Positions 44,421 to 64,000 are shown, numbered from the stretch's first letter. The stretch is DNA of 64,000 nucleotides from Candidatus Eiseniibacteriota bacterium (GCA_963783375.1 CAWANH010000029.1:1408001-1472000), one strand, 5' to 3'. Translations and numbers: made by a program. The notes: generated from the letters alone by a model not told the origin.

Positions 44421-44443
44421 CGCCCCGCTCTTCCCTCCGATGG

Positions 44444-44839: not shown

Positions 44840-45177
44840 GGTTCCCTCCGCACCACCGCGTGTGACGCCATGACCTGGAGCCTCCCCATTCGGCTCCAGG
44901 ATCCCTCCCGGCCCCGCAGGTACCGCACGGTGCGGACCCGGGCCGGGGAGCCCGCGGCGACTTCCACCGCCGCGGCGATCACCGCCACGGTCTCCGGGGA
45001 GATTCCGTCGGGCTCGTCCCCCGCGCGGCGGTCGGCCTCGGCCTGGAATCGTCGCTGGGTGAGGGTCCGCCGCCATCGCTCGGCCCGCCCGATGGCCCCC
45101 ATGACCAGGGCGAGGAGGCTCAGGGAGGCGAAGGTCACCACCAACCCGAGCAGCGCGATGAGAAGTCCCTGTCTCAA
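44836..45177 (-). CDS. OadG/MmdD-family subunit
   Basis: N-terminal TM helix, ETVAVIAAAV, W.RMGR. Confidence 0.85.
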   Translation of the reverse strand: MRQGLLIALLGLVVTFASLSLLALVMGAIGRAERWRRTLTQRRFQAEADRRAGDEPDGISPETVAVIAAAVEVAAGSPARVRTVRYLRGREGSWSRMGRLQVMASHAVVRREP

Positions 45178-45194
45178 TCATTCCCCCTCAGGGT

Positions 45195-46745: not shown

Positions 46746-46908
46746 CCGTCGCCCTCCTCGGGGCCGGGATAAATCCGCGCCCCAGTTCCAGCCCACCATC
46801 TTAGGCCGGGGATGGTAGCGGGGGGAACACCCAGGAATCCTGACCATTTTTGTATTCTATGATTTCCGGTGAGGCCGCGGGATTCTTATTGCGATTGATT
46901 TCGTCCGC

Positions 46909-46937
46909 TTGTTGTCGACCCATCGCTTCGGTATAGT
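46909..46937 (+). promoter_or_regulatory. Candidate sigma70 promoter of the Rieske/cytochrome b operon
   Basis: TTGTTG-N17-TATAGT in an AT-rich divergent intergenic region. Confidence 0.5.
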
Positions 46938-46977
46938 GCCGGTTGCGAGTTTGCGAACTCTTTCTCTCCGGAGAACC

Positions 46978-47454
46978 ATGGAAGATCGATCCGTCTCGCT
47001 CCCCCCATCGGGTCGCCGCCGTTTCCTGGGATGGCTCCTGGGCACGTCCGGCGCGGCGTTGCTCTTCTCCGCGCTCTATCCCGTCCTCCGGTTCATCAGT
47101 CCTCCCCGCGTTCCCGAAGCGAGCACCAACCAGGTGGAGGCGGGTCCGGTCAACGACCCCGAGCTCATCCAGAAGGGGTACAAGATCATCCACTTCGGGA
47201 ACGACCCGGTCATCCTCATACGCGCCGCCGAGAATCACTTCGTGGCCCTCTCGGCCACCTGCACGCACCTGGATTGCATCGTGGAGTTTCAGAAGAACCG
47301 GGACCGGATCTACTGCAATTGCCACGGCGGGGTCTACGATCTCTCGGGACGCAACGTGGCCGGCCCTCCCCCCCGACCTCTCACTCCGTTCAAGGTCGAT
47401 GTCGTGGCCGCCCAGAGCGGCCAGCCCGCGACCATCATCGTTTCCCGGGCATAA
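46978..47454 (+). CDS. Rieske 2Fe-2S subunit
   Basis: Tat-like RRRFL plus TM helix; CTHLDC and CNCHGG. Confidence 0.95.
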   Translation: MEDRSVSLPPSGRRRFLGWLLGTSGAALLFSALYPVLRFISPPRVPEASTNQVEAGPVNDPELIQKGYKIIHFGNDPVILIRAAENHFVALSATCTHLDCIVEFQKNRDRIYCNCHGGVYDLSGRNVAGPPPRPLTPFKVDVVAAQSGQPATIIVSRA

Positions 47455-47457
47455 AAC

Positions 47458-48615
47458 ATGGCGCGCGAATCCCTCTTCCGATGGCTTGACCGCCGCCTCC
47501 ACGTCTCCTTCCTCGTCGACGCGGGCTCCCACAAGACCGTCCCCCTCCATCGCTACACCGTCTTCTACTACCTGGGTGGCATGACGCTGTTCTTCTTCAT
47601 CGTCCAGGCGGTGACCGGCGTGCTCCTCATGCTCTACTATCGCCCTTCGGCCGGGGAGGCGTTCGAGTCGGTCGAGTTCATCATGACCACCGTTCCCTTC
47701 GGCTGGCTCCTGCGGTCCATCCATTCCTGGTCGGCCAATCTTCTCGTCTTCTTCGCCTTCCTGCACATGGCCACCGTCTTCATCATGAAGGGCTACCGCC
47801 CGCCGCGGGAACTCACCTGGATCACCGGTTGCGTGGTCTTCTTCCTGGTCATGGCCTTCGGGTTCTCCGGCTATCTCCTTCCCTGGAACCAACTTGCATT
47901 CTTCGCGACCAAGGTGGGCACCGACATCGCGGGATCGGTTCCGGTGGTCGGGGAGTGGCTGCTGCGGTTCCTCCGCGGCGGCGATCGCGTGACCGGAGGA
48001 ACCCTCTCGCGGTTCTACGGCTGGCACGTGGCCATCCTGCCGTCGATCACCCTGCTCCTCCTGGGGCTCCATCTTCTCCTCGTCCAGATCCACGGCATGA
48101 GCGAGCCCGAGGCGGTCCGGCGGCGCGAGGTGAAGTCTCCCGGCATGAAGTTCTTTCCCCATTTCGCCCTCCGCGATCTCTTCGGGTGGACGGTGGCCCT
48201 GGGCGTGCTGGCCGCCCTGGCCGCGTTGTTCCCGTGGGAGCTCGGCGAGAAGGCCAACCCCTTCGCCCCGGCCTACCCGAACATCCGGCCCGAGTGGTAC
48301 TTCATGTTCATGTTCCAGACCCTGAAGCTCGTCCCGGGGGGCGAGATCGCGGGGATCGAGTACGAGGCGTTTCCCATTCTCCTGTTCGGGCTGGGGGGGG
48401 TGGTCCTGCTCCTTCTCCCCCTCTTCGACACCGGCGCCAAGCGGGTACGAACCCTCTTCACGAACGCTCTCGGCGGAGCGGCCCTGGCCTACGCGGTGGG
48501 GATGACGGTGTGGGGCTATCGATCCGCGGTGCCTCTGCTCCTGGTGGCCGCGGTCGCGGCGCTCCTCGTTTTGACGGCGTGGCTCACGCGCGGCACGCGG
48601 AGGTCACCATCGTGA
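47458..48615 (+). CDS. Cytochrome b (unsplit; b6-like and subunit IV-like parts fused)
   Basis: YLGG, RSIHSW, GYLLPWNQ, RFYGWH, PEWY. Confidence 0.95.
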   Translation: MARESLFRWLDRRLHVSFLVDAGSHKTVPLHRYTVFYYLGGMTLFFFIVQAVTGVLLMLYYRPSAGEAFESVEFIMTTVPFGWLLRSIHSWSANLLVFFAFLHMATVFIMKGYRPPRELTWITGCVVFFLVMAFGFSGYLLPWNQLAFFATKVGTDIAGSVPVVGEWLLRFLRGGDRVTGGTLSRFYGWHVAILPSITLLLLGLHLLLVQIHGMSEPEAVRRREVKSPGMKFFPHFALRDLFGWTVALGVLAALAALFPWELGEKANPFAPAYPNIRPEWYFMFMFQTLKLVPGGEIAGIEYEAFPILLFGLGGVVLLLLPLFDTGAKRVRTLFTNALGGAALAYAVGMTVWGYRSAVPLLLVAAVAALLVLTAWLTRGTRRSPS

Positions 48616-50348
48616 TCGGGCTCTTGAACCTCATGCTCCCGCTTCTTCTCGCCGCGGATCCGGCGGCGATCGCGCCTTCGCAATCGCCACAGGCTCCGCA
48701 GACCCCGCAGACCTCCTGCACCACGTGCCACATGAGCCCCGACCTGTTCGACGCCGAGAGCCTGAAGGAGTGGGAGGGGATCGACCGGGACGTGCACCAT
48801 CAGGCCGGGCTCTCCTGCCAGGACTGCCACGGCGGCAACCCGGATCCCGCGTTGAGCGAGGATGCCGAAGCGGCCATGGACCCGAACTTCACCGCCAACC
48901 CCTTCCGGGGGGCCCCGCTCCGGACGGCGATCCCCGCGTTTTGCGGCCGGTGCCATTCCGATCCCGTCTACATGAAGCGTTTCCGTCCCGACCCGCGGAT
49001 CGACCAGGAGCAGGAGTACTGGACGAGCCGCCACGGCAAGGCCTTGCGCACCGGGGATATCAACGTGGCCACCTGCATCGACTGCCACGGCACCCACCGG
49101 ATCCTCCCCCCGGACAACCCCGAGGCCCCGGTGTACCCGACCCACGTGGCCGAAACCTGCGGCCGGTGCCACTCGGATCCCGAGCACATGAAGGGGTATC
49201 GGCTGGACGACGGGCGGCCCCTCCCGGTGGACCAGTACGCCCGTTGGTCACGGAGCGTTCACGCCAACGCCCTCCTGGTGAAGGGGGATCTCACCGCCCC
49301 CACCTGCAACGACTGCCACGGCAACCACGGCGCGACTCCTCCGGGGGTCAAGGAGGTAGCGTTGGTCTGCGGCCAGTGCCACGGCCGCGAAGCGAACCTC
49401 TTCCGGGCGAGCCCCAAGCAGGTGGGATTCCAGAACCACAACGATTTCCTGGCCGAGGCCGGGGACGAGGGTTGCGCCTCGTGTCACGACGCCGACCAAC
49501 CGCCGGGCACGATGACGGGGATTCAGCGCTTCTACGGGTGCGTGGTTTGCCACGAGAACCACGGCGTCGTCCGCCCGACCATCGCCCTCCTGAGCCCGCT
49601 CCCCGACACTCCCTGCGCGCTCTGCCACGAGGGTCCCGAGCCGGCGGGCACTACGGGGGAGCCGGAGAAGGTCAAGCAGCACTTCCGCGAGGTGCGGGAT
49701 GCCCTGCTGGCCAAGACGGTGGGGATGGCCCCCGAAGACCGGTTCGATTGGCTGGTCGACCAGGCGCTGGTCCTCGATACCCACACGCTCCCCGGCGGGG
49801 AAGGCGAGGCTCCCGCCCTCCGGCCCGAGTTTGCGCGCCTCTTCGAGCGGTTCCGTATCGGCAAGACCCACTACACCTTCGTGGATCCGGAAACCGGGAC
49901 CGAGGTCAAAGCCCGCGTTCGCCGGTGCGGCGATTGCCATGCCGCGCCCCCGGATTCGGAGCCTCCGGAAGGCGGCTTCGCCGTCTCCCAGGAGTATCTG
50001 GACGACATGCATGCGCTTACCTTGCAGATCGCCCGGGCCGAGCGGAGCTTCCTCGCCGCCCAGCGCGGCGGCGTCGAGGTCCGGGAGGCGCTTACCTCGC
50101 TCGATAGCGCGGTGGACAGCCAAATCCAGCTCGAGGTGCTCGTCCACGGATTCTCCACCAGCCAGGATGGAGCCTTCGTCGCCAAGCAGAAGGAGGGCAT
50201 GGCCCACGCCCAGGCGGCCGCGGTCACCGCTCAGCGCGCGCTCGAGGAGCTGACGAACCGCCGTCGCGGTCTCAGCATCTCCCTCATCTTCATCCTCATC
50301 TTCCTCACCGCCCTCGGCCTCAAGATCCGAGATCTCTCCCGACCCTGA
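48612..50348 (+). CDS. Membrane-anchored 11-heme cytochrome c
   Basis: 11 CxxCH motifs counted; signal peptide; C-terminal helical stalk and TM helix. GTG start overlaps the cytochrome b stop. Confidence 0.9.
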   Translation: MIGLLNLMLPLLLAADPAAIAPSQSPQAPQTPQTSCTTCHMSPDLFDAESLKEWEGIDRDVHHQAGLSCQDCHGGNPDPALSEDAEAAMDPNFTANPFRGAPLRTAIPAFCGRCHSDPVYMKRFRPDPRIDQEQEYWTSRHGKALRTGDINVATCIDCHGTHRILPPDNPEAPVYPTHVAETCGRCHSDPEHMKGYRLDDGRPLPVDQYARWSRSVHANALLVKGDLTAPTCNDCHGNHGATPPGVKEVALVCGQCHGREANLFRASPKQVGFQNHNDFLAEAGDEGCASCHDADQPPGTMTGIQRFYGCVVCHENHGVVRPTIALLSPLPDTPCALCHEGPEPAGTTGEPEKVKQHFREVRDALLAKTVGMAPEDRFDWLVDQALVLDTHTLPGGEGEAPALRPEFARLFERFRIGKTHYTFVDPETGTEVKARVRRCGDCHAAPPDSEPPEGGFAVSQEYLDDMHALTLQIARAERSFLAAQRGGVEVREALTSLDSAVDSQIQLEVLVHGFSTSQDGAFVAKQKEGMAHAQAAAVTAQRALEELTNRRRGLSISLIFILIFLTALGLKIRDLSRP

Positions 50349-51096
50349 TCCAACCGGCGGGCGGGAGGATCGTCGGAGACGGACGGCGGCCATCATGGGC
50401 ACCGACCGTCCGCCAGGGACCCACCCCTGCGCTTTCCTATCCCCGCTTCGACCTGCGGGGGGGTGGACTTCCATCTCCAGGTCCCCGCCCATACCGGGCG
50501 CGACGCGGTCCGGCGGGACACGGGACGGGATTCCCGGGAAGGGACACGAGCCCGGCCCGTTCCTGAAGTCGTGTCGTGAGGGGAGCCGATGACCGTCGGA
50601 CCGGGCACCGGAGCGTCCGACGACGCAGGCGTACCCGGTGCGGTACGTCGAGGAGGCGGACCGCGAGGACGCCCGAGCCGCCGATCAGATGCCCGCCGGA
50701 CCAGCCGGTTGGTGAATGGGCCGGACCGGAAGTGAACCCCGGGAGATTCCTGCGCCTACCCGGGCACCGCCGGTGGATCCGGATTGCCGGCTTCACCTTG
50801 AGACACCCCACTGTGCCGACAACGATGGACTCAGGTGGAAGCTTCAGACCCATGTGGACACGGGTCGGCGAGGCGCGCCCCTTCAAGTCTCGCCGCCGGA
50901 GACGGCAGTCTCTCGATGGAATAAACGGGCGGGCGCCCATCCGGACGCCCGCCCGACTTCCAGAGACCTATCGTCGCAATGGAACCCTACCGGCTCGGCT
51001 CGGTCCGGTCGACCGTGGACCGAGCCTCCCTCCCTCCGGCGACCGCCGGGCCCCGTTCAGGAACGGCCGCCCGGGCCCCGAGGGGAGGTTGGGAGC

Positions 51097-52074
51097 CTAG
51101 TGCACCGCGGCGGCGCTTGCCCCCATCCTCGAGAGACCCTCCTCGAGCAACGCCTTCGCGTAGTCGGGGTTGTGAACGCCCATGCTCTTGTCCTCGTGCA
51201 TGACGTAGAGCCAGTTGTAGAGCGCAATCCCCTGATCCTCGGGGGCCTCCGAGACGGTCGGATGCCCGTCCTCCGAGTTCTCGTTGATGAGGCCGGCGTT
51301 CACCAGCAACGCTCCGAGCTGGCTCCCCAGGTCCTCGATCTCGGTCTGCACGCCCTTGTAGTCGAAGCTCGTGGCCTCGGGGTGACAGCGCTGGCAGGTG
51401 GCCAGGGCGGGCTCGAAGTGGTGGTCATTGGTATCACCCATGTGACAATCGACGCAGGTGTTCGTCACCGCTCCGTAGTGCGGGCTCACGGTCCCCGTTA
51501 CACCGGCGCCGGCGACGCCGAGCAGCATGGCGCTCTGCGGACCGTGGTGCGGGCCCCAGTGGGAGCTGATACCGGTGATCACGCCGTTTTCCGCCACCGG
51601 GAAATCGCGACGCGGCTGGTGACAGTTGGCGCACAGGTTCCCCTCCCCGCCGTCGAAGGTCGCACCTTCGATGGAGGCGAGGTGAACCGGTTGCGCGGTT
51701 CTCAGCGAGAAGTCCGCCATCGAGTAGGTCTCGTGGATCATGTGACAGGCGCGGCAGTCCTGGCGCGTCGGGTCCGGCTGGCCCATCTCCACCTCGGTCG
51801 GGTTCTCCCCCGCCGCCACCATCTCCTGGAAGCCGTTCCCGGAGTGGCACCCGGCGCAACTTGCGCTGCTCGACCGCACGTAGGCCGTTCCGGTGCCGTG
51901 CACGGACTCCGCCCACTCGGTTTGCTTCCCGGTGATGATGCTGCTGGCGTTGTGGCAATCCGCGCAGGACAGCGGCTTGGTCGACTCGACGCGGGTGATG
52001 GTGCGATCACACGACTGGGCGCCGATCAGCACCGCGACTGCCCCGAGTGCTAGGATGGTTTTTGCGACGGACAT
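51097..52074 (-). CDS. Hexaheme cytochrome c lipoprotein
   Basis: Lipobox-like GAQSC; 6 CxxCH; C-terminal helices with GVHNPDYA. Confidence 0.88.
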   Translation of the reverse strand: MSVAKTILALGAVAVLIGAQSCDRTITRVESTKPLSCADCHNASSIITGKQTEWAESVHGTGTAYVRSSSASCAGCHSGNGFQEMVAAGENPTEVEMGQPDPTRQDCRACHMIHETYSMADFSLRTAQPVHLASIEGATFDGGEGNLCANCHQPRRDFPVAENGVITGISSHWGPHHGPQSAMLLGVAGAGVTGTVSPHYGAVTNTCVDCHMGDTNDHHFEPALATCQRCHPEATSFDYKGVQTEIEDLGSQLGALLVNAGLINENSEDGHPTVSEAPEDQGIALYNWLYVMHEDKSMGVHNPDYAKALLEEGLSRMGASAAAVH

Positions 52075-52107
52075 CTAGGCCTCCTTCTTTTCCTTTTCTG
52101 CTTGCGC

Positions 52108-53676
52108 TTACTTCCCGTGCAGGTCGTAAGCGACGTTGAACCAGACCACATTGGCGGTGTAGTAGCGATCCAGGAGAATGTAATCGTCGTAGTTGTACAC
52201 GTTGTACTTGGCCTCGAGGTGAATGTCGTCCTTGACGGCGTATGCCCCCTCGAAGAAGAGAATCGACTTCTCGATATCCAGGTCGCCGCCCACGTTCAGG
52301 AAGGTGAGACCGCTGGAAAGACGCAGATCCTTGATCCTCTCCAGGTCCACCCGGCCGGTGACGCTGTTGTTCCAGGCCCGGAACCTCCCGGTGCGATCCT
52401 GGAACTCGTCGTTGGAATACTCGTAAGTCCCCGACAACCCGCCCCATCCGGCATAGGCGTACCGGGCGTATGCGGAGGCGACCTGTCCCGTGGCGCTGAC
52501 GTCGATATCGGGATAGTCCCGGTCACGAATACGGAATCCCGAACCGATCGAAAGACCCTTGACCGGGTTCACCTCCAGGTCGCCACGGAAATGGGCGGTC
52601 TCGATGTCCTTGAGAAGGGTCAGCTCCTCCTGGTCCTTCTTCAGCCTGCCCGCGTACCGGAACCTGGCGGTGAGGAGCTTGTTGTACCGGAAGGTCGTCG
52701 CCGCCCGCCAGCTGCTGTAGTACGTGAGGGAGACCTCGTCGTCGTTGGTCTCGTATCCGTAGCCGAGGGAGACGTCGCCGTACCGGTAGAAAACGGTGGC
52801 GTCGATGTCGTTGGTGAAGCGATCCGTCTTGAGATCGGTGGTCTGGTCGTCGATCCGCTGGGCTTCGAATCGGTACTCGAGGCGCAGGGGATCGACCGGA
52901 TCGATCAGGCCGGTGTACTGGAAATTGGCCAGGGTGTAGTCCAGGTCCCCGGTGGAGAGGTTGCTGACCCCGTAGGCCGCCCGCAAGAGGTGTGTCCACC
53001 TGTCGTAGAACATGCAGGGAGTCGCGATCCGGGCCGAGACGACCTGGCCGGTGCGGTCGGCGTCCGAGTTCCGCTGGTCGCTGAAGTCGGAGACGCGATA
53101 GTCGACGGCCAGAACCCTTCGGTTCTTCCGGGCCTCCGCCGACACACGGCCGGAGAGGAGGCCGCTGTCGTACCGGAGCCCCAGGGCGTCGGCGGTTCCG
53201 GGTGGATAGGATAGACGGTTCCCGGTCTGGGTGATGTAGCCCAGGGATCCCTCGAGTTTGATCCAGCGCTCCGGAGTGAATCGCGCGTTCAGGTTCCAGT
53301 TCCGCCGGTCGGACGTCGTGTTGCGGCCGGGGTCGAACACCTGGCGGTTTTGGGTGAGCGAAGCCGACAGCTTGAATCTGCCCGGTCGCCGGTAGAGCAA
53401 CTTCCCTTGACGACTGTCGAAGTTGATCTCCTTGAGGTCGATCATCAGGTAGTTGTCGGGATTCGGCGTTCCGGTCAGGCGGAGCTGGGTGATGGAGAAC
53501 CCGTCGTGGATGTTGTAGGTCTCCTGGACCGCGGACCGGTCCCCCACCTCATCGAGGATGACCCCGCCCAGTTTCACGGTCCCGGTCCACGCCCCCGCCC
53601 GAAGCGGAGCCGCCCCCAGGACGAAGATGAGCATGGCCATGAGTGTCGCTCGGGTCTTCATTCGCATTCGCACCAT
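52108..53676 (-). CDS. Outer-membrane beta-barrel (MtrB/PioB-like position)
   Basis: Signal peptide, alternating beta-strand pattern, aromatic C-terminal strand; lies between two multiheme genes. Confidence 0.8.
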   Translation of the reverse strand: MVRMRMKTRATLMAMLIFVLGAAPLRAGAWTGTVKLGGVILDEVGDRSAVQETYNIHDGFSITQLRLTGTPNPDNYLMIDLKEINFDSRQGKLLYRRPGRFKLSASLTQNRQVFDPGRNTTSDRRNWNLNARFTPERWIKLEGSLGYITQTGNRLSYPPGTADALGLRYDSGLLSGRVSAEARKNRRVLAVDYRVSDFSDQRNSDADRTGQVVSARIATPCMFYDRWTHLLRAAYGVSNLSTGDLDYTLANFQYTGLIDPVDPLRLEYRFEAQRIDDQTTDLKTDRFTNDIDATVFYRYGDVSLGYGYETNDDEVSLTYYSSWRAATTFRYNKLLTARFRYAGRLKKDQEELTLLKDIETAHFRGDLEVNPVKGLSIGSGFRIRDRDYPDIDVSATGQVASAYARYAYAGWGGLSGTYEYSNDEFQDRTGRFRAWNNSVTGRVDLERIKDLRLSSGLTFLNVGGDLDIEKSILFFEGAYAVKDDIHLEAKYNVYNYDDYILLDRYYTANVVWFNVAYDLHGK

Positions 53677-53680
53677 CCTA

Positions 53681-54640
53681 CTACTGGTGACAGCCTGATT
53701 TGAGACAGCCTTGGTCCCTGAGCGACTCGCTCAGGAAGTTCCGGCTGGTGTAGGAACCGTGAATGTCCACGTGGCAGTCGTTGCACGGAATGTCGGCCCA
53801 TCTGGTTCCGTGATGGGAGTTCATCTGGTGTAGCGGGACGGTGTGGCACTGCTTGCACAGCTGGAAGTTCGGAGCCTCGTAGGGCTGCTTGAGCATCCGC
53901 GGCAGGTAGGACCCGTGGGGGTCGTGACAGTTCATGCAGCCCCCCTCCTCCGTGGAGTAATCCACCGTCGCCTGGTGCTCGTAGGGGAACGGTCCCTGGA
54001 ACTCGCCGTGGCAGCTCGTGCACATCTCGCTGCCGTTCCTGGACATGTCCCGGGAGCCGGCGTCCAGGGTCTTGTGACAATCGGCGCAGTTCATGACTCC
54101 GTCATCGACCGGATGCCGGAAGGGCTTGGCGAACTGATTTCCCACCGCGGTGTGGCACCCCAGGCACAGATCGGGCTGCGCTTTCCTGAGGAGCGGAGGC
54201 TGGGTGGAAGCGTGGACGCTGTGACAGCCGCTGCAGTTCACGTCGCTCCGGGCGTGGACGTTCTTTTCCATCATGTTTTGCTGGTGGCTGTTCAGGTGGC
54301 AGGTGGAGCAGATCTTGCCTTCGACCGCCGCGCTCAGGGCGGCGGGAACCGGCATCGGATACTGCTCCGGGTCCTCCTCGTAGTGACGAGAGTCCCCGCG
54401 GTGGCAATCGGTGCAGGCTACCCGGACATCGGCTCCCTGATCGGATTCCCGGGCCACCCGATGGGGGGTCAGTGCGAGTGAATCGGCCATTCCCTCATGG
54501 CACGTCAGGCATGTTTCGGTTTCACGGGGGTAGTCCCCGGCGGAGGGATCCGGCTGCGATCCGGCGAGAAGAACGATGACAAAAGGAACAAGGAATAACA
54601 CCGGCACGTAGCGACGCAGTTCCTTGGCTTGCTCTTTCAA
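53681..54640 (-). CDS. MtrA/DmsE-family decaheme cytochrome
   Basis: 10 CxxCH plus terminal CLKSGCH; GPFPYEH..., CHDPHGS, CHVDIHGS are typical of the family. TTG start after GGAGG. Confidence 0.88.
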   Translation of the reverse strand: MKEQAKELRRYVPVLFLVPFVIVLLAGSQPDPSAGDYPRETETCLTCHEGMADSLALTPHRVARESDQGADVRVACTDCHRGDSRHYEEDPEQYPMPVPAALSAAVEGKICSTCHLNSHQQNMMEKNVHARSDVNCSGCHSVHASTQPPLLRKAQPDLCLGCHTAVGNQFAKPFRHPVDDGVMNCADCHKTLDAGSRDMSRNGSEMCTSCHGEFQGPFPYEHQATVDYSTEEGGCMNCHDPHGSYLPRMLKQPYEAPNFQLCKQCHTVPLHQMNSHHGTRWADIPCNDCHVDIHGSYTSRNFLSESLRDQGCLKSGCHQ

Positions 54641-54911
54641 TGGGCCCCCTCCGAAGAAAGACCGCCTATGTAGCTCTTTCAGGGCGAAACGTACCAACAC
54701 CTTAACGGAGCCGTCAAAGTGCTTTTTCCGATTTGACTTATTCTTTTATCGTGTTCCGGAGGGAGATCTCCCCATTCAAACCTGGAATATGAGGTATCAA
54801 GAGAAAACAGATAATTCTTGTCATAAAATCTTTCCTCCGGAACCCGCCCGGGCGCGTTCCCCCGGGGGAAGGCCGCCCTGGAAAGCGGCCTCCCCCCGAG
54901 CCGTCGTACGC

Positions 54912-57900
54912 CTACGGCCCCGAGGGGGAACGCACCTGCATGTTCTCCCCCAGGTGGCACTGCATGCACAGGTCCCGGGTCTTGTCGTGGGTCAGGAGCG
55001 CCTCGAAGGGACTCGAGTGCGGGTCATGACAGGACGTGCAGGTGATGGCCAACCCGGTCCGGGGGTCCTTGGTCGGACCCTGGTAGGGGTGGAAGTGGCT
55101 CTTGGTCACATCGTCATGGCACTGGAGGCAGAGCTTTTCCTGAGGCTCGTTCAGGATGCCCCGGGTCGCGCTCCCGTGAGGGTCGTGGCAGGTGTCGCAG
55201 CCGCCCACGTCCGGGTGCTTGTACTCTCCGGCGAACATGGCCCGGTCATGGCAGGTGAAGCAGGTCGAGGCCTCGTCCTCACGCCTGAGAAGCGACGCCG
55301 TCCGCCCGGCATGGGGGGAGTGGCAGTTGAGGCAGGCCAGCTTCTCGGTCACCGCGGGGTGGACCACCGGCTTCTCGGCGTCCTTGGCATGGCCGCCGTG
55401 ACAGGTGACGCAGAGCGCCGCTCCCTCCGCCTTCAGCCCGTTCTGCCCGGCGTGGCACGCCATGCAGTCCTTCTGGGCGTAGGGGGCGTGGTTGAAGGCC
55501 AGGACGAGGCCCGGCTCGGTCGAGCCGTGGGGATCGTGGCAGCTCGTGCAGTCCCCCTTCCCCGCCTCGAACCCACGGTGCCTGGCTTTGAAGGCGGAGG
55601 CGGTCTCGTCGTGGCACTGCCCGCACAGGGCCTTGGCCGGCTCGGCCAGGAGCCCCTTCACCGTCCCCACGTGGGGGTCGTGACAGGTCTGGCAATCCCC
55701 TTCCTTGGCCGGGGGATGGGCGTTGGCCAGCCGGCTCCGCTCGGCGACCGCCGGGTGGCAGTCGGCGCAGAGGCCCGGAGCCGCCTCCTTGAGGAGTCCG
55801 GGCATGACCCCCTCGTGCCCGCCGTGGCAGACCCGGCAGTTCCCATCCCGGACCGGGCTGTGGACCAGGTCGGGGTCGGCCTTCTTGATCCGCCCGCCCG
55901 GGTCGTCATGGCACCGGGCGCAGAGTCCGGGCCCCGAGTCCACGAGCAGGGTCGAGTCGGCGGCGGCATGGGGATTGTGGCAGCTCGCGCACTCCCCCGC
56001 CTCCACCGGGGCGTGAAGTCCCTTGGGGGGCGCCGGGGCCTCGATCGCCCCGTGGCAGGACCCGCAGAGCTCGACCTGGGAGTCCACCAGCTCCACCTTC
56101 CCCCCCGGGGACTGGGGCTTGTGGCAGGTGGAGCAGGACCCCGGGCCGAAGGGCTCGTGGCGGACCGCTCGCAGGAGCCCCTTTTCCCGGCTCCGATGCG
56201 GATCGTGGCAGGATAGGCAGCTTCCCCCCTCCGGGGCGAAGTTGTCGTGGAGCTTCCTGAAATCCCGGTCCCCCACGTCGTGGCAGGAGCTGCAGGGGTT
56301 CTTCAGCGCCACCAGCCCGTCGGCGCCCTTGGTCTGGTGGGGATCGTGGCAGACCTCGCAGTTCCCCTCCTTCACCGGGGGATGGACGGTCCCGCTGTCC
56401 AGGGAGTCCTTCATCGCGGTGTGGCAGGTGAAGCAGATCTCGCCCTTGGCCGCCCTCAGGAAGGGCGGTCCGTCGGCGGTCCCGTGGGGATTGTGGCAGT
56501 CGGCGCACTTTCCCTCCGCCGCCGGCTCGTGGAGGGTCGCGGGGGGAAGATCGGCGGTCACCTCGCTGTGGCAGCCCCCGCAGAGCTCGGCGGCCGGGCT
56601 CACCAGGAGTCCGCGATTGGTCCCGCCGTGCGGCCGGTGACAGTCGGTGCACTCACCCTCGGCGAAGGGCGGGTGGGGGCTCGCCACCCTGAGCTCGTCG
56701 ACCTGCCTCGCGTGGCAGGGCAGACAGACCAGGGGCTGCTTCTGGACCAGGATGGCCGGGTTGTCGCTCCCGTGAGCCTGGTGGCAGTCGGCGCACCCGT
56801 TCCCGGCGAAGGGGAAGTGCACCACCGGGAGCTTCCGCTCCCCGGCGGTGTCCTCATGGCAGGAAAGACAGGTCACGTCCTCGGCCTGGGTCAGGAGATG
56901 CGGCTGGGTGCTGACGTGCGCGGTGTGGCAGGCGCGGCAATCGTCCTGGAGCGGGGCGTGGGGCACCTTGACCGAATCGGCGGCGGCGATCACGTCCTGG
57001 TGGCAGGACGCGCAGAGGTCCGGCGAGGCCTTTCGCAGCATGGCCTTCCCGCCGCCCCCGTGGGGGGCGTGACAGGCGTCACAGGCCAGGGCCTCGAACG
57101 GGGCGTGCCGCGACACCAGGTCCTTCTGGTCGCGCGGGTCCTCATGGCAGACGAAGCAGAGATCCTCGGCGTTTCCCTTGAGCAGGAACCTACGGTCCGC
57201 GCTGTGGGGATCGTGGCAGAACAGGCAGTCGCCTTCCGCCGCGGGAGGATGGCCGCCCGGCCCCGCGGCGGTTTCCCCCACGTCGGAGTGGCAGGTCACG
57301 CAGAGATCTTCCTTCGACGCGGTGAGCTCCCCGGGCTTGTCCGGCAGGCCGGCGTGGCAGGCCTGGCAGTCCGCCTCGGCGTAGGGAGCGTGCACGTATC
57401 CCCGGTTCTGGTCCGTGCTGGTTGAACCGTGGGGATCGTGGCACGATGAACAGGACGCGCCCGCTACCTCCGGTCGAGCATGGAGTTCCGGCAGCTCCGA
57501 TACGGGACCGTGGCAGCGGGCGCAAAGCTCTTTCTCGGGCGCGACCAGAAGGTTCGCGTTGGCCGAGTTGTGGGGAAGGTGGCACTCGGAGCACTTCCCC
57601 TCCTCGAAGGGTTTGTGTTTCCGGGTGGAGGCGATGGCCGCCTTGAGCTTGGGATGGCAGGAGGCGCAGGTCTCGGCTTCGGGACCGCGGAGCAGCCCCT
57701 TCTGGTCCGAGGCATGGGGATCATGGCAGCCGTCACAGGTGACCCCTTCCACCGCCAGATGATCCGAGCCCGAATCCGGGGCCACCTTCACGTCCTGGTG
57801 GCAATCCGTGCAGAGCTGGGGGAAGTCCTTCTGAAGGATCAGCGACTGGGCGAAGCCGTGCCGCTTGTGACAGGACTCGCAGTCCTCCTGCGCCGTCGGG

Positions 57901-58076
57901 ATGTGAACGACCTTCTTCCCCTTGAACTCGTCCCGGGCCTTCTGGTGGCAGTCGTAGCAGGGGCGTCGCTGGAGCGCCTCGCTTCGGCCGGCGAATTCCG
58001 GCAGGAAGAGCCCGGCCGCCACGGCCAGGACCACGAACCCGAGGCCGACGACGGCGGTGCGAACGCGGGGAACCAT
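54912..58076 (-). CDS. Giant 42-heme cytochrome c (paired CxxCH repeats)
   Basis: 42 CxxCH counted by hand in about 1050 aa; repeating HxP...CxxCHxPH...LL...LCxxCH units; N-terminal signal or anchor. Confidence 0.92.
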   Translation of the reverse strand: MVPRVRTAVVGLGFVVLAVAAGLFLPEFAGRSEALQRRPCYDCHQKARDEFKGKKVVHIPTAQEDCESCHKRHGFAQSLILQKDFPQLCTDCHQDVKVAPDSGSDHLAVEGVTCDGCHDPHASDQKGLLRGPEAETCASCHPKLKAAIASTRKHKPFEEGKCSECHLPHNSANANLLVAPEKELCARCHGPVSELPELHARPEVAGASCSSCHDPHGSTSTDQNRGYVHAPYAEADCQACHAGLPDKPGELTASKEDLCVTCHSDVGETAAGPGGHPPAAEGDCLFCHDPHSADRRFLLKGNAEDLCFVCHEDPRDQKDLVSRHAPFEALACDACHAPHGGGGKAMLRKASPDLCASCHQDVIAAADSVKVPHAPLQDDCRACHTAHVSTQPHLLTQAEDVTCLSCHEDTAGERKLPVVHFPFAGNGCADCHQAHGSDNPAILVQKQPLVCLPCHARQVDELRVASPHPPFAEGECTDCHRPHGGTNRGLLVSPAAELCGGCHSEVTADLPPATLHEPAAEGKCADCHNPHGTADGPPFLRAAKGEICFTCHTAMKDSLDSGTVHPPVKEGNCEVCHDPHQTKGADGLVALKNPCSSCHDVGDRDFRKLHDNFAPEGGSCLSCHDPHRSREKGLLRAVRHEPFGPGSCSTCHKPQSPGGKVELVDSQVELCGSCHGAIEAPAPPKGLHAPVEAGECASCHNPHAAADSTLLVDSGPGLCARCHDDPGGRIKKADPDLVHSPVRDGNCRVCHGGHEGVMPGLLKEAAPGLCADCHPAVAERSRLANAHPPAKEGDCQTCHDPHVGTVKGLLAEPAKALCGQCHDETASAFKARHRGFEAGKGDCTSCHDPHGSTEPGLVLAFNHAPYAQKDCMACHAGQNGLKAEGAALCVTCHGGHAKDAEKPVVHPAVTEKLACLNCHSPHAGRTASLLRREDEASTCFTCHDRAMFAGEYKHPDVGGCDTCHDPHGSATRGILNEPQEKLCLQCHDDVTKSHFHPYQGPTKDPRTGLAITCTSCHDPHSSPFEALLTHDKTRDLCMQCHLGENMQVRSPSGP

Positions 58077-58077
58077 G

Positions 58078-58629
58078 TTACTTCTCCTCGGCGCTGGGAG
58101 GTTCGTAGCCATGAACTTCCTTGAGCTGGAACGTGAAGAACGATTTCGGCGAGAAGTGAGGCGGGAAGTTCAGGAACGCCCACGAGCTGTCGACCGCCGC
58201 CCCCTCCTTGAACACCAGCACGTGGACGGCCGGGTTCTTCATTTCCATGGAGAAGTTCACCGGCTTGCCGCCGGCGATCTTGAAGTCGGGCATGAAGCCG
58301 CTCACCCGGGCGGTGTAGGGAGTGTCCCCCAGGTACATCGTCTCGCCGAGCTTCACGGTGTGGGACTCGCTCCAGCTCGGGTACATCCGGTTTCCCACCT
58401 CGAGGCCGAAGCTCAAGGTGGTGTCGGCCGCGATGGCCGCGGTGTCGGCTCCGGTTTCGGGCCCCGTGGTCCTGGGAAGCGAGCGAAGGATGGCGGCGGC
58501 GCCCGAGTCCGGCGACGCCTCCTCGGGGTGGACGGCCGCCGAATCCGCCGGCGCGTCCTGGGATCGGGCCCCGTCCGCCCAGGCCCAGACCAGGAGTCCC
58601 AACCCCACCGCGATCAAGATCCGTCTCAT
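58078..58629 (-). CDS. Exported hypothetical protein (possibly ResB-like beta domain)
   Basis: Signal peptide; FMPDFKI...S.EMKNPAV...WAFLNFP. Confidence 0.65.
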   Translation of the reverse strand: MRRILIAVGLGLLVWAWADGARSQDAPADSAAVHPEEASPDSGAAAILRSLPRTTGPETGADTAAIAADTTLSFGLEVGNRMYPSWSESHTVKLGETMYLGDTPYTARVSGFMPDFKIAGGKPVNFSMEMKNPAVHVLVFKEGAAVDSSWAFLNFPPHFSPKSFFTFQLKEVHGYEPPSAEEK

Positions 58630-59282
58630 CCGATCCCTCCCTTTCCCGGCGCCACACCCACGTCCGTCCGGTCCGACTCTCCCGTGTCCTTCGGGGGCGG
58701 CGAGCTCGACGCTCCGGCGCCGCCCCGGACCGGAGGCAGGGTGGAGAGAATCCCCTCCACGGTTTCCGAAGCCAATCGCTCCAGGCTGGACACCCGCCCG
58801 ATACCGAACACGCTTTCCTTGTCCCCGCCGTCCCGGCTGTACACCGCACTCCAGAGCACCTTCCCCCCGGGCACCTCCAGGAGCCGGAGAGACACCGAAA
58901 CCTGGGGCACCTGGCTTCCGTCCGCATCCCGATAGCCGTAGGCGAGGACCGACCCCACCAGGAGCGCGTTGGCCCCCATCTCCACCCCCAGTGAATCCAC
59001 CAGGTCCGGGGGCAGGCGGTCGGTCATGATCCACGGCTGCTTGGAGAGCGCAGCCTCCATACGTCCCACATCCACCACCGCGATCCCGCGGTGCTCGGCC
59101 AGGGCCACCGCGAGCATCGGGGCAAGCCGGTCGGGAGCGTCCCGGGTCGGCGTGTAGTTGGCCAGGGGAAGGATCCCCACCCGCCAGCTTCCGCTCAAGG
59201 GCTCCGCAACGTACGCCCGAGGCCCCGGCGCGCAGCCGGCCAGGACCAGGATGATGGCCGCGAGAACCGTCTTCCGGGTCAT
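58626..59282 (-). CDS. Lipoprotein, CsgG/LpoB/GNA1162-like fold
   Basis: Lipobox LAGC; VGILPLAN, GANALLVGSV, VSLRLLEV..GKVLWSA. Confidence 0.75.
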   Translation of the reverse strand: MTRKTVLAAIILVLAGCAPGPRAYVAEPLSGSWRVGILPLANYTPTRDAPDRLAPMLAVALAEHRGIAVVDVGRMEAALSKQPWIMTDRLPPDLVDSLGVEMGANALLVGSVLAYGYRDADGSQVPQVSVSLRLLEVPGGKVLWSAVYSRDGGDKESVFGIGRVSSLERLASETVEGILSTLPPVRGGAGASSSPPPKDTGESDRTDVGVAPGKGGIG

Positions 59283-59869
59283 CAGCGCCTCGCTCGCGGA
59301 AGTGAGGACAGAAGTCCCCGGCAGACGTCGGCGGTGAGGGTTTCCATCAGCCGCACCCCTCCCCAGCCGAGGATGGGGAAACCGGCCCCGCCCTTCCGGG
59401 TCTCGCTCGCGCTCCAGACCAGGCGGCCGGTGGCCGCGTCCACCAGGCGCACCTCGATGGAAAACAGTGGATAGGAATCGCGCCCGGAGCTCACCATCTC
59501 GTACTGCCGCACCGTGCCCATGAAGATCCCCTGCACGCCCGCCTTTTCTCCCAGTTGGGCCAGTTGTTCGGTCGACCAGGGAGTCTCGGCGGGGATCCCC
59601 CCGCGGATCTGGGTCATGTCCGCGGCGAACTGTCCGGGTTCCACCACCTCGGCGAACCCCCGTTCCAGGAGCTCGGTGAAGAACACGTTGGTGACCCGGT
59701 ATCCCGCGGCCCGATCCTGGGCGAGGCTGGTGAAGGGGATGATGCCCACCCTCTCGTAGAAAGGCAGGTCGGCCTCGGGGTTCAGGAACCGGGTCGGACC
59801 CCCGCAACCGGAGACGGCGATGAGCGTCGTCGCCACCAGGAGCGCTCGGAGCCTCGAAACGTTGTTCAT
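59282..59869 (-). CDS. Lipoprotein, CsgG/LpoB/GNA1162-like fold (paralog)
   Basis: Lipobox VSGC; VGIIPF, GVQGIFMGTV, VRLVDAATGRLVWSA. Confidence 0.78.
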   Translation of the reverse strand: MNNVSRLRALLVATTLIAVSGCGGPTRFLNPEADLPFYERVGIIPFTSLAQDRAAGYRVTNVFFTELLERGFAEVVEPGQFAADMTQIRGGIPAETPWSTEQLAQLGEKAGVQGIFMGTVRQYEMVSSGRDSYPLFSIEVRLVDAATGRLVWSASETRKGGAGFPILGWGGVRLMETLTADVCRGLLSSLPRARR

Positions 59870-59887
59870 GAAGTTCTCGCTTCCCGT

Positions 59888-61464
59888 CTAGAAATTCCGG
59901 TCCACCGAGAGACCGTAGGTGTCCAACGTGGCCCGCCCCCGGACCGCGACCTGTCGCCAGGAAAGCTGAACCCGGGTGCGACGGGCAGGCCAGAAAGTGA
60001 AGTCGGTTCCCTTGATGATCTCGGAGGAGCGCGAGGTGAGGACCAGGGCCTCCCGCCGGGACCAGTCGAGGGAGAGGGAGGTGCGCTGGCCGAGCCGCAG
60101 GTTCCCGGTCAGGCTCCCGTAGCGTTCTTCGCGGTCGATCCGGCCCCGTCCGTTCTGGCGCCGGTAGGTCGCCACCAGGTCCGCCCCCGTGGCCGGCTGG
60201 TACCCGACCTGGTACTCCCACTGGCGATCGGTCTGGGCCCTCCCGTCGATTTCGGGGAGGGTGTCCCTCCGCCAGGTGACCTCGAACCGGGTATCCCGGC
60301 TGGGAAGGGTGCGGAGCTGGATCAGGCGATGCCACTGGGTTCCGGTGGAGACCGAGCCCCCCGCGCGCGACGCCCGGAGCTCGGCGCGGGCGTTGATTCC
60401 CTTGCGGAGGAGGCCGTCCACCAGGGTGAAGACGGTGTTCTGGGGGATCGAGCCGTCTTCGGAGCGGATGTTGAAGGAGCGGAGGTAGCCGGACTGGAAG
60501 GTCATCCCCCGAACGATCTCCCGCCGGAAAATGGCCTGGAGACGAGCGTAGTCCGCTTCGATGTCTCCGTCCACGGCCTGGCGCCGTCGATACTCCCGGA
60601 GCCCTTCGAGGCTCAGCCCCTTCACCGGCTGGTAGGCCAGGCGCCCGCTCAGGTAGCGTTCGTTGATGGTCTGATCGGCGGTCAGGGCATTGTCCTGACT
60701 CCGCCCCCAGTACACCAGCGCCGAGGTACCGACGGTGAACCGCCGGGAAGGCGCCCAGCTCGAGTTCAGGTTCATTCGCTGGGTGTAGAAGGTCCGGTCC
60801 CGGTCCCGGGAACCGAAGGTGGAGTAAAGGGCGTCGTAGGTGGCCTGGGCGTTGGCCCGGCCGAGATTGACCCCGGTCCGGAGCCCCCCCGCCACTCCTC
60901 GGTCCGGGTGTCGGGGTTCAGCCCTCCCATGGGGCGGGCGTCCAGTCTCCGCCAGGAAAGGTTGCTTCCGAAAACCCCGCCGGCGGCGTAGGAAACCTCG
61001 GCCCGGCGATCGTCGGTGGTGGAGCGGCCCTGAAGGGTCTCCCGATCCTGGCGTTCGTACTTCAGCGCCATCCTCGGGGCGCCGCGCGGGCTCACGTCGA
61101 GACCGAAAAGCAGGTTCCGGTCCCGGGACGTGCTAACGCCCACCGACGTCTGCTGCCAGGGGGTGAACTGGGTGGTGAGACGCCAGGCAGGCTTTCTGAG
61201 GTCGGCGAAGAAACGGGAGCTCAGGAGGTCCGAGTTCTCTTGTCCCGGGTTCGCCCGGTAGGAGAGGGACATGCGGAGCCTGAGGTCGGCGCTTCCGGGG
61301 AGCACGGCGCGCGTGCTCAGGTCGTAGTAGTGGCGCATGACGTCCGCGTCCGCTATTCCCGAGGTGTGGTGGTACGAACCCACGTAGCGACCCTCGTAGG
61401 CCCCGGCCCCCGCCGGAACGGCCAGAGTCGCCCCGGCCAGGATGAGCGCCGCCCACCGGTGCAT
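59888..61464 (-). pseudogene. Outer-membrane beta-barrel split by a 1-nt frameshift in a G7 run (60884-60890)
   Basis: 5' ORF with signal peptide and 3' ORF ending in ...SVDRNF join in frame if the run is G8. Confidence 0.78.
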
Positions 61465-62621
61465 CAGGGTCCTCCCCGTCCCCACGGGCTCGGGCTTCCC
61501 GGTGCGCCGTTACCGGGCTCGCCCGGATTGTGAACGTTGTGGGAGGTGGGACCGGAGTAGTCGCGGCCGTGGCAGTCGTAGCAACTCTGGAAGCCGGTGG
61601 AGCGATGGGGGCCCCGGTCGGAGAGGGTGTTCATGACGATTCCCTCCACCGTCTGCGCCCCGGGAATCCCGTCCGAGGCGATGTGGCAGCCGAGGCAGAA
61701 CCGGCGGCACTGGGTCGCGTCGTTCACGGTGTCGGTGAGCCCGCTCCAGTCAACCCGCTCGTCGCTGATCAGGTATCCGTTCGGCTGCACCCGGTTGTGC
61801 CCCTCGGAACCGTGGGGATTGTGGCAGTCGTAGCAGGGGAGCATGTCCCCGACCTGGATGTGCGCGGGCCAGGAGAGGGCGACCCGGGATTCCTTCCGGA
61901 TCTGGTGGCCGGCGTGCTCGCCGTTCAACCCCGCGTCGTAGTAGTCCGCGATGTTCCGGTTCGCGGGGTCCATGCCTCCCGGCGCGTCCTGGTCGTGGCA
62001 GGAGAAGCAAAGCGCGTATTCCTCGGGAGATCCCACCGCGGCGTGGCCGCCGATCCCCCCGTAGGGCTTCAGCAGGAGGTCGCGACGATTCGGGGTGCCG
62101 TGAGGATCGTGGCAGTTCTCGCAACGCCCCTCTCCCGAGGCGTCTCGCCGGGGCATGTCGGGGTCCTGGGCGTGAGGCGAAAAGAAGTGACCCCCGGGCG
62201 TGATTCCCGGATCGGTGTAGGCGGTCTCCCCCGGCCAGCGGCCGCGATAGTTCACGCCGACCAGGCGCTCCCCGCCGGTGTTGGCCTCGAAGTAACCGGC
62301 GTCGGGTTCGGACTCGGGCATGCGGTCGGATTCGCCGAGGGGGTAATTGCCGGGACGGCGGCGGTGGCACGGTTCTGCCCCCTGGTCCCAGAAGGCGAGC
62401 TGGTTGGTGTTCTCGGTGAAGAGGAGGAGCGGATAGGGGGAGGGCTCCCACGCGTCGCCGTGGGGAGGATGGCACTGCTGGCACTGCCCCCGGGCCTGAT
62501 CGGCGTCACGGAGCACCCCGGTCTGCGGGTCCCCATGGGGATCGAAGGGCGTGTCCGCGGATATGTTCCAAGCAGCCAGAAGCAGGGCCGCCGTGAGAAC
62601 CATGCCGGAAACGGGTCTCAC
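61464..62621 (-). CDS. Exported multiheme cytochrome c (6 CxxCH plus one degenerate site)
   Basis: CQQCH, CENCH, CFSCH, CYDCH, CLGCH, CYDCH; extra AEPCH; signal peptide. Confidence 0.88.
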   Translation of the reverse strand: MRPVSGMVLTAALLLAAWNISADTPFDPHGDPQTGVLRDADQARGQCQQCHPPHGDAWEPSPYPLLLFTENTNQLAFWDQGAEPCHRRRPGNYPLGESDRMPESEPDAGYFEANTGGERLVGVNYRGRWPGETAYTDPGITPGGHFFSPHAQDPDMPRRDASGEGRCENCHDPHGTPNRRDLLLKPYGGIGGHAAVGSPEEYALCFSCHDQDAPGGMDPANRNIADYYDAGLNGEHAGHQIRKESRVALSWPAHIQVGDMLPCYDCHNPHGSEGHNRVQPNGYLISDERVDWSGLTDTVNDATQCRRFCLGCHIASDGIPGAQTVEGIVMNTLSDRGPHRSTGFQSCYDCHGRDYSGPTSHNVHNPGEPGNGAPGSPSPWGRGGP

Positions 62622-62670
62622 ACCAAGCTCCCCCGGCCGCAATGTCGAAACGGGAAGGCAATGATGGACC

Positions 62671-62714
62671 GGATTCGGGCACCGGCAGTGGCCGGATTGT
62701 CGGTGCCCGAATCC
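62671..62714. terminator. Strong intergenic hairpin after the omcS-like gene
   Basis: GGATTCGGGCACCG...CGGTGCCCGAATCC, a 14-bp perfect stem with no clear U-tract. Confidence 0.6.
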
Positions 62715-62774
62715 CGTCGAAACGGGGAGGCCGGGCGCGCTAGCGCTTCGGCCGCCCTAATCCACCACCAGGCT

Positions 62775-63845
62775 TTACTGGGCCTGGGTGTGGCACTGAC
62801 CGCAGAGGGCGCGGGCCGAAGTCCCGTCGTCGCCCTGCTCGGTCACCGTGCCGGTGCCGATCATGTAGATCAGGCCGAACGCGTTCTGGTTGCCGTGGCC
62901 CTTGTGGCACGACATGCAGGACTGCGTGAGGCCGGTGTCGGTCCCGTCGTATGCGCCGGCCTTCTGGCCGGTGGGCGACATGACCTGGACCTGGTTGGTC
63001 TTCCCGGTCAGGAAGGCCAGACCGGAGTGACCGCCGCCCAGGGCGCCGATGTCGACACCCGCCGCCGGGTGACGCACGAAGTCCGCGGGAGGAGCTCCCG
63101 TGCCGCCGATCTCCGCCCCGCCGATGTCACCGTGGAAGTTGGTGTGGCAGGCCTTGCAGAAGGAGGCATAGGCGGACGCGGTCGTCACCGGCTCGTTGAA
63201 GGTGATCGCCCCGACCCCGTAGTGGTTGGCGCTGGTGCCGCTGGAGGCATTCTCGTACACCCACTTGGTGAGATCGTTGGCACCCTCGACGTCGCCGCGG
63301 GAGTAGGTCAGGAGGGTCGAGATCCCGCTCAGCGGAGGACCATAACCGCCCAGGTTCCGATAGGTATTGACGTGAGCCGAGTTGCCGCCGTGGGGCGAAT
63401 GGCAGTCGGTGCACTTCAGACCATCGGGATCGCTGAACGTGCCGCCCGGAGCCACGGCCAGCGAGTTCAGGGTGTGCCCGGTGGTCGGCGGATAGAGACC
63501 GTTGCCGCCCAACTCGTTCAGGGCACCCGCCTGACGGACATAGCCGTTGGTGTGGGTTTCGAACACGTCCGGCGCGAGCGCCTGCCCATCGTGGCAGGCC
63601 AGGCACAGGTTGTTGATATCGTCACGGAGCAGGAACTCGAACGGGCCGCCCGGTCCGAGCGGCGTGTAGAAGCCCGATCCGTTGGGGTTGTATCCATGGC
63701 TCTGGCTGTAGTGCATGACGTGGCAGTCGGAGCAGATCAAGGCCGAGCCGGTGTGATAATCACCGGCGAATCCGACGGACACGAGCACGGTCAGAGCGAG
63801 GAGAATCCCCGGACCAAGGAGGAGTTTCTTCCTCATAGCCACCAT
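62775..63845 (-). CDS. OmcS-like hexaheme cytochrome c
   Basis: Signal peptide, then YH...CSDCHVMH, CLACH, GH...APGGT...CTDCHSPHG, YRNLGG, CKACHTNFH, RHPA, CMSCHKGH, RALCGQCH. Start may be ATG 63836. Confidence 0.85.
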   Translation of the reverse strand: MVAMRKKLLLGPGILLALTVLVSVGFAGDYHTGSALICSDCHVMHYSQSHGYNPNGSGFYTPLGPGGPFEFLLRDDINNLCLACHDGQALAPDVFETHTNGYVRQAGALNELGGNGLYPPTTGHTLNSLAVAPGGTFSDPDGLKCTDCHSPHGGNSAHVNTYRNLGGYGPPLSGISTLLTYSRGDVEGANDLTKWVYENASSGTSANHYGVGAITFNEPVTTASAYASFCKACHTNFHGDIGGAEIGGTGAPPADFVRHPAAGVDIGALGGGHSGLAFLTGKTNQVQVMSPTGQKAGAYDGTDTGLTQSCMSCHKGHGNQNAFGLIYMIGTGTVTEQGDDGTSARALCGQCHTQAQ

Positions 63846-64000
63846 TACCTCCCTTGCACGGTTGCGAGACCGATTCCGGAGACTCCGGAACCGCTTTGCT
63901 CCACATGATCGCGGGCCCCCGTCACGGGAGGCACGGCCACCTGGAGCACCTGGCAGCGGGCGCCCGCCCGCTCCAAGACTGCGAGCCGGTCCGCGGCCAG

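Follow-up and report, generated by a model that had tools for sequence, protein, structure and literature searches.

An OmcS-family cytochrome operon with a candidate filament-end adaptor in a probable Eisenbacteria genome

Geobacter sulfurreducens has four OmcS paralogues, one of which is known to form a wire (PMC12977616), and the secretion, termination and anchoring of such nanowires have been stated to be unanswered (PMC13712944). For the osc operon of this organism, roles have been proposed in the folding of OmcS (OscH), in secretion (OscE/F/G) and in morphology (OscD) (PMC13194489, PMC12977616). The block comprises GSU2499 (725 amino acids), the lipoproteins GSU2498 (199) and GSU2497 (392), GSU2496 (572), the 26-heme GSU2495, the 16-heme GSU2494, the NHL protein GSU2493 and the YVTN propeller GSU3586 (PMC3495685, supplement). 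We compared this cluster with an operon at one end of a 64,000-nucleotide stretch (the window) assigned to Candidatus Eiseniibacteriota bacterium (GCA_963783375.1, CAWANH010000029.1:1408001-1472000). At a probability of roughly 0.55, we propose that the operon specifies an OmcS-type filament that would be exported and held by an outer-membrane barrel with a PelC-type lipoprotein ring, ended by a second cytochrome (hex2) and fed by a 42-heme wire. The OmcS fold and ligand set, the gene inventory, the kinship to PelC and the mapping of 26- and 16-heme proteins onto the 42-heme protein are shown by the analysis itself, as is the conserved gene order from the OmcS-family gene to the second lipoprotein.

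Gene content compared with described systems

The features of the operon, from its start, are as follows (window positions).

63845..64000, minus strand: 3' end of an NHL-repeat beta-propeller gene, continuing to 64912 past the window (355 amino acids, signal peptide; first operon gene)
62775..63845, minus strand: OmcS-family hexaheme cytochrome (signal peptide, ~329 amino acids mature; predicted filament subunit)
62671..62714, minus strand: 14-bp hairpin in the gap 3' of the omcS-like gene (likely mRNA stabiliser or partial terminator)
61464..62603, minus strand: hex2, second multiheme cytochrome (six CxxCH, OmcS-like N-terminal CxxCHxxH; candidate filament-end adaptor)
59888..61464, minus strand: OscE-like outer-membrane beta-barrel (~525 amino acids; predicted 28 strands, no plug)
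59282..59869, minus strand: PelC-like lipoprotein 1 (195 amino acids; lipobox)
58626..59282, minus strand: PelC-like lipoprotein 2 (218 amino acids, one domain; paralogue of lipoprotein 1)
58078..58629, minus strand: exported protein of an unnamed family (in the OscH chaperone gene position)
54912..58076, minus strand: 42-heme cytochrome (42 CxxCH; likely fusion of a 26-heme, GSU2495/OscI type, and a 16-heme, GSU2494/OscJ type, protein)

An earlier reading made from the sequence alone (the sequence-only reading) had given the gene order from the omcS-like gene to the 42-heme gene as mostly overlapping or abutting. The order stands, as does the tight packing apart from two gaps: the NHL/omcS-like, hex2/barrel, lipoprotein 1/lipoprotein 2 and lipoprotein 2/exported protein junctions overlap and the exported/42-heme gap is 1 nt, with 18 nt between the barrel and lipoprotein 1 genes and about 170-177 nt between omcS-like gene and hex2. 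Extension of the window to the right, a check proposed with that reading, placed the operon start at the NHL gene outside the window; the stop codon of this gene overlaps the first ATG of the omcS-like gene, and a terminator-like site lies upstream of it. An NCBIfam search of the accessory genes returned no naming family above cut-off.

The osc cluster (GSU2504-GSU2493) and the window share an OmcS-fold hexaheme protein, a large barrel, two lipoproteins, 26 plus 16 hemes and an NHL propeller, and both have the order barrel, lipoprotein, lipoprotein, chaperone slot, 26-heme, 16-heme. The barrel has ~525 amino acids here versus 725 there and is without the domain inserted in the 700-residue barrels; the second lipoprotein has one domain (218 amino acids) in place of the two of OscG/GSU2497 (392), and lipoprotein 1 has 195 amino acids against 199 in OscF. 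The 26- and 16-heme genes are fused in the window but separate in the osc cluster, the NHL gene has moved to first position, and one OmcS-family gene stands against three in the Geobacter cluster. A peptidyl-prolyl isomerase (PPIase), the domain that we take OscH to have, and a YVTN propeller belong to the osc set but not to the window cluster, which has hex2 and the orphan exported protein.

In species-representative genomes, 212 pattern matches yielded 167 confirmed relatives, and 79 loci were retrieved, many of them cut off at contig ends. The gene set is not a chance assembly, because the same set recurs around relatives in these 79 loci: 74 have an NHL-like gene, 65 have one lipoprotein or both, 38 have the exported protein and 32 have a complete 41-42-heme gene, and the order OmcS-family gene, hex2, barrel, lipoprotein, lipoprotein is conserved. 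A PPIase was present in nine of the 79, all from Acidobacteriota or Planctomycetota (570-608 amino acids in three query loci), and none of the nine has hex2, the exported protein or a fused 42-heme gene. The PPIase-bearing loci have a ~710-residue barrel, one- and two-domain lipoproteins homologous to those of the window, 26- and 16-heme genes, an NHL gene and a YVTN-like propeller, and they link the window type to the Geobacter osc block. Kinship to the Geobacter omcS-companion cluster, which the sequence-only reading had pointed to, is supported by heme counts, sizes, domains, gene order and these loci. From size, domain and order rather than alignment we infer orthology to the named Osc proteins; none of the 30 representatives looked up, of 150 listed, bears a Geobacter name. 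The window cluster has no PPIase, and in the host genome three PPIase queries gave partial-domain matches only. An OscD-type propeller is likewise absent from the cluster, where hex2 holds its position; two queries for it matched seven loci, the host match being partial and unlinked.

Three further systems share part of this layout. The OetABI cassette of syntrophic sulfate reducers, a relative of the Geobacter cassette, likewise brings together genes for a periplasmic multiheme protein, a barrel and an OmcS-like protein (with omcX); its descriptions come from Desulfobacterota only, and it is read as an electron conduit (PMC10553843), whereas the host here belongs to the FCB (Fibrobacterota-Chlorobiota-Bacteroidota) group. 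In the PelBC exporter (PDB 9H80; PMC12141448), PelC is also encoded beside a monomeric barrel, but that barrel has 16 strands and a tetratricopeptide-repeat stalk, versus 28 predicted strands, no such stalk, two different lipoproteins and a presumed cytochrome cargo here. The MtrAB conduit (PDB 6R2Q) has a large plug-less barrel adjoining multiheme genes, but no counterpart of the lipoprotein ring genes or OmcS. Clusters of the osc kind are already published as widespread, and novelty is therefore below what the sequence-only reading implied. Different from Geobacter, in many FCB-group genomes, are the likely 42-heme fusion, the predicted plug-less 28-strand barrel, and hex2 with the orphan exported protein replacing propeller and PPIase. 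Among the matches listed in a literature search, none tied OmcS to Eisenbacteria or to PelC; Shen 2025 may already cover these phyla or this likeness.

The predicted filament subunit and hex2

The open reading frame at 62775-63845 contains six CxxCH and all the OmcS-type motifs that had been listed for it. A single-sequence PDB search with the hexaheme returned no OmcS match; its OmcS homology is detectable with a family profile or by fold, and the profile alignment and fold comparison agree on the homology proposed earlier. The protein has a signal peptide, six CxxCH in sequence order and the OmcS fold, as expected of an OmcS-family member. Compared with the OmcS nanowire subunit (PDB 6EF8/6NEF), it is shorter (329 versus 407 residues mature) and 18-23% identical. 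Six non-motif histidines conserved in the family give twelve histidine ligands, as judged by conservation and alignment only. The inter-subunit ligand of OmcS, presumably His16, aligns with His18 of the hexaheme, and this donor histidine is invariant (81/81), so the equivalent that was to be looked for is present by alignment and conservation. OmcS has one inter-subunit histidine ligand, and it binds heme 5 (PMC6584659).

The 177-nt gap after the omcS-like gene has a folding z of -2.1 and contains the 14-bp hairpin. Values below -2 occur in this gap in 23 of 30 related loci, compared with 0 to 3 at other junctions, and the hairpin is likely an mRNA stabiliser or partial terminator favouring excess subunit. 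Codon adaptation of the omcS-like gene was not distinctive (0.74, versus 0.68-0.76 for the other genes). The host also encodes a stand-alone OmcS-family paralogue with seven CxxCH (L103:7449-8594; 31% identity to the operon copy), which groups in the tree with seven-heme paralogues adjoining the cluster in other phyla.

The N-terminal half of hex2 matches the OmcS-like family profile (96%), and 47 of 49 members have CxxCHxxH as their first motif. The family has six CxxCH and a non-canonical CX8CH site, the first Cys of which is retained in 39/49 members and is Ala in 10/49, including this copy (61467-62555); no member varies at the second Cys or at the His. Eight non-motif histidines are conserved, one beyond the need of seven hemes. 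Of 50 loci, 46 have hex2 directly after an OmcS-family gene or fused to one, and 49 have it before the barrel gene. Four loci (L030, L032, L040, L054) encode hex2 fused C-terminally to a complete OmcS-family domain by a linker of ~10 residues; in this geometry, the hex2 N-terminal histidine would supply the missing ligand of heme 5 in the OmcS domain. The proposed nanowire anchor is a subunit-like cytochrome with one spare histidine, and the paper that proposes it reports no such gene in the omcE operons (PMC13712944). Judging from these sequence features, hex2 is a candidate filament anchor or cap, a filament-end adaptor likely to connect the predicted wire with the outer-membrane pore at the wire's end. 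On the other side, the histidine surplus is a soft count, and hex2 could sit either at the base or at the tip. Complex prediction of the omcS-like protein, hex2 and four hemes scored 0.30 and 0.01, where the mark is 0.32, with controls unfolded, and speaks neither for nor against binding. In several Zixibacteria and Ignavibacteria loci, hex2 has an additional C-terminal six-heme domain.

The same data can be read without long wires: the OmcS-like protein and hex2 would then form a short multiheme cap, anchored at the cell surface and acting as terminal reductase for a porin-cytochrome conduit. The natural fusions would be self-contained two-unit chains, the omcS-like protein is compact and distant from OmcS, and three of the four G. 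sulfurreducens OmcS paralogues have no known wire (PMC12977616), all of which takes weight from a filament. However, the conserved hairpin follows the omcS-like gene only, as for an abundant subunit, the donor histidine does not vary, and fusion-bearing loci keep a separate main OmcS-like gene, the fused domain being a divergent paralogue. We regard a short cap as improbable.

For the proposed filament, the subunits would be exported by Sec and loaded with heme in the periplasm. The OmcS-fold hexaheme would likely stack head-to-tail into a conductive filament, with His18 of one subunit completing heme 5 of the next, and the hairpin would let subunit mRNA exceed machinery mRNA. At the last subunit, the open heme-5 end would receive the N-terminal His of hex2, which has one histidine to spare and would end the chain at the barrel. 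Electrons may come from quinol, through the products of NapC-like and c554-like genes upstream or a Rieske/cytochrome b module downstream, and would pass along the 42-heme protein across the periplasm to the filament and an outside acceptor.

The barrel, the PelC-like lipoproteins and the 42-heme protein

In the assembly, the barrel open reading frame is split over two frames. All four sequencing runs checked (at most four samples, from three studies, the best-matching run possibly being the source sample) carry an additional C at 60883; the gene is therefore intact (~525 amino acids) and the frameshift is an assembly error. A pseudogene or programmed frameshift was rejected, as the frame is restored in 4/4 runs. 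In relatives, the barrel is a single open reading frame of ~520-600 amino acids. The model of an orthologue (L002) is all-beta, with 28 strands by count and no plug, at a predicted local distance difference test score of 94.3. With an estimated C-alpha diameter of 50-56 Å, the pore could let a 4-nm subunit through, retain one, or enclose a chain of hemes.

No PDB sequence matched the barrel profile. Against the 700-residue barrels of osc-like loci, a family of 1204 clusters at 50% identity, it gave a full-length match apart from the insert (95%, E 2.4e-8). A 136-sequence profile of these barrels recovered 45 of 56 test sequences at E <1e-3 and none of 30 reversed ones, and the two halves of the window's own barrel matched it weakly (E 2e-4 and 2e-3). 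By this indirect, profile-based comparison with the 700-residue family, the barrel is of the OscE-type large-barrel kind. FCB barrels are without the insert, possibly a plug or a surface domain; one of the 700-residue barrels (L060:3663-5789) has a weak galactose-binding (F5/8 type C) match in it. The exported protein was considered as the missing insert and rejected (profile match 0.2%). This protein had no meaningful Pfam or PDB match, and an Atlas lead to DUF2155 (score 0.90, the family on 32% of members) is a lead only. The NHL gene (Pfam NHL, E 1.5e-15) is likely the counterpart of GSU2493 (OscK).

The sequence-only reading had described two CsgG-like lipoproteins. They are lipoproteins, with lipoboxes VSGC and LAGC; a CsgG-type channel did not hold up, since they resemble PelC and the channel is a separate barrel. 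Their profiles matched PelC (9H80) at E 1.5e-10 and 2.9e-14, as well as the 12-chain entry 5T11, which we take to be a PelC. CsgG scored E 0.32 with lipoprotein 2 and gave no match with lipoprotein 1, against E 1e-13 to 3e-14 for PelC, and the domains span ~180 residues compared with ~260 in CsgG; a CsgG identity was accordingly rejected. Pfam CsgG matches in part of the members (22/64 and 20/53 in the two families) indicate a wider fold family common to both. By these profile matches, the two proteins are PelC-like, predicted ring subunits and paralogues of each other. PelC forms a twelve-member ring with a 3.2-nm pore under a separate 16-strand PelB barrel (PMC12141448), and by analogy the lipoproteins here likely form a ring beneath the barrel. 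A plasmid search with lipoprotein 1 gave no match.

All eight 26-heme-type proteins map to residues 2-657 of the 42-heme protein (its first 26 motifs), and 7/8 16-heme proteins to residues 628-1045 (the last 16), so a fusion of the two cytochromes is likely. With the motifs masked, the preference is weaker (7/8, and 5/8 with one tie).

Two published readings of the osc/Oet barrel exist, secretion (PMC13712944, PMC13194489) and the OetABI conduit (PMC10553843). On the second, the barrel would be an electron conduit threaded by the 42-heme protein as MtrB is by MtrA, and the filament would leave elsewhere, for example by a type IV pilus or type II secretion system, and be charged at the surface. 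The closest solved structure to the barrel model is indeed MtrB (root-mean-square deviation 8.6, 9% identity), with many unrelated barrels nearly as close and no MtrB family match for the barrel. The unplugged 28-strand pore needs a filler, the 26+16 fusion fits a single continuous wire, MtrAB was required for current from OmcS in Shewanella, the host has a PilB above the family cut-off, and the OetA/OetI/OetB reading concerns the same cluster in syntrophic sulfate reducers (PMC10553843). Together these speak for the conduit reading. Nevertheless, Geobacter genetics assigns OscEFG to secretion (Shen 2025, PMID 39818215, via PMC13194489), the PelC-like lipoproteins are of an export family, and a separate decaheme and barrel pair already adjoins the operon. 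We consider a conduit unlikely, though it is the alternative that we take most seriously.

More tentatively, FCB-group bacteria may build OmcS-type nanowires by a distinct, chaperone-free machine, in which hex2, as anchor or terminator, would give one His to the open filament end and sit in a 28-strand barrel ringed by a mixture of PelC-type lipoproteins, while one 42-heme polypeptide would connect quinol oxidation with the base of the filament. If true, this would be the first parts list for the ending and electrical rooting of a cytochrome nanowire, and such wires would reach at least eight uncultured or little-studied phyla. The cluster type supplies an in-operon anchor candidate, the natural fusions point to a docking site, and the compact eight-gene set is suited to reconstitution. 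For the debate between secretion pore and conduit, both the relationship to PelC and the likely fusion of 26- and 16-heme genes are relevant.

Host, relatives and neighbouring genes

The host genome is 4.73 Mb and 97% complete. The N-terminal 600 residues of its RpoB are 88% identical to those of one Ca. Eisenbacteria genome and 69% to another, and 45-62% to those of the Zixibacteria, Latescibacterota, Ignavibacteria, Gemmatimonadota, Acidobacteriota and Planctomycetota genomes compared; one further Eisenbacteria-labelled genome gave a frameshifted 54% match and one genome no match. Because of these identities, the host is likely a member of the Eisenbacteria and not of the Desulfobacterota, in agreement with the FCB-group host suggested at the outset.

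The labels of the genomes with these loci include Eisenbacteria, Krumholzibacteriota, Zixibacteria, Ignavibacteria, Gemmatimonadota, Latescibacterota, Glassbacteria, Fibrobacterota, Acidobacteriota and Planctomycetota, and the gene content suggests long-range electron transfer in the first five and others. Within the host phylum the distribution is patchy: hex2 was detected in 11 of 201 genomes (at most 10 candidates scored per genome), and no full-length OmcS-like match was found in three same-genus genomes. In the OmcS-like tree, Zixibacteria are interleaved with Ignavibacteria, and Eisenbacteria with Krumholzibacteriota, which suggests transfer or mislabelled bins; the tree is a quick one, drawn from its midpoint and lacking Geobacter sequences, so we read no direction of transfer from it. 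In a third subtype (L056, L057, L059, L062, L068, L069, L070, L078), a nine-heme cytochrome replaces hex2, with only the N-terminal motifs alike. Sequencing runs matching the locus came from soil and salt marsh, and six RNA runs contained 0.05-0.10 of its sequence words.

The operon lies within a larger electron-transfer island (window 46909-54700 and L001:2411-4600). Downstream are a decaheme gene, a second barrel and a hexaheme gene, with a Rieske/cytochrome b/11-heme module on the opposite strand; upstream are a c554-like tetraheme gene and a NapC/NirT-like gene. The host genome also contains cytochrome c assembly genes, heme-copper oxidase subunits and PilB above the family cut-off. Electrons could run inward, from Fe(II), humics or partner cells to oxygen or a soluble acceptor, a difference in direction only that is compatible with the proposed filament and with the other alternatives. 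The oxidase subunits and the Rieske/cytochrome b module beside the cluster would suit it. So would the uptake proposed for the homologous cluster in syntrophic sulfate reducers (PMC10553843). However, dsrA was searched for and not found in the 97% complete host genome, and the model made for sulfate reducers therefore cannot simply be transferred to this host. The upstream NapC/NirT-type gene also argues for the outward direction, this family being best known as quinol dehydrogenases. Inward flow appears unlikely.

Open reading frames at window 43284-46847 presumably encode a sodium-pumping biotin decarboxylase set (carboxyltransferase, biotin carrier and membrane subunit). Elsewhere in the host, a giant cytochrome cluster (L102:5881-16821; about 1117900-1128800 of contig C28 in genome G000) begins with a 23-heme gene, followed by overlapping frames with 51, 9 and 14 CxxCH and a 553-residue open reading frame; the 51, 9 and 14 CxxCH frames are possibly one frameshifted protein of ~70 hemes.

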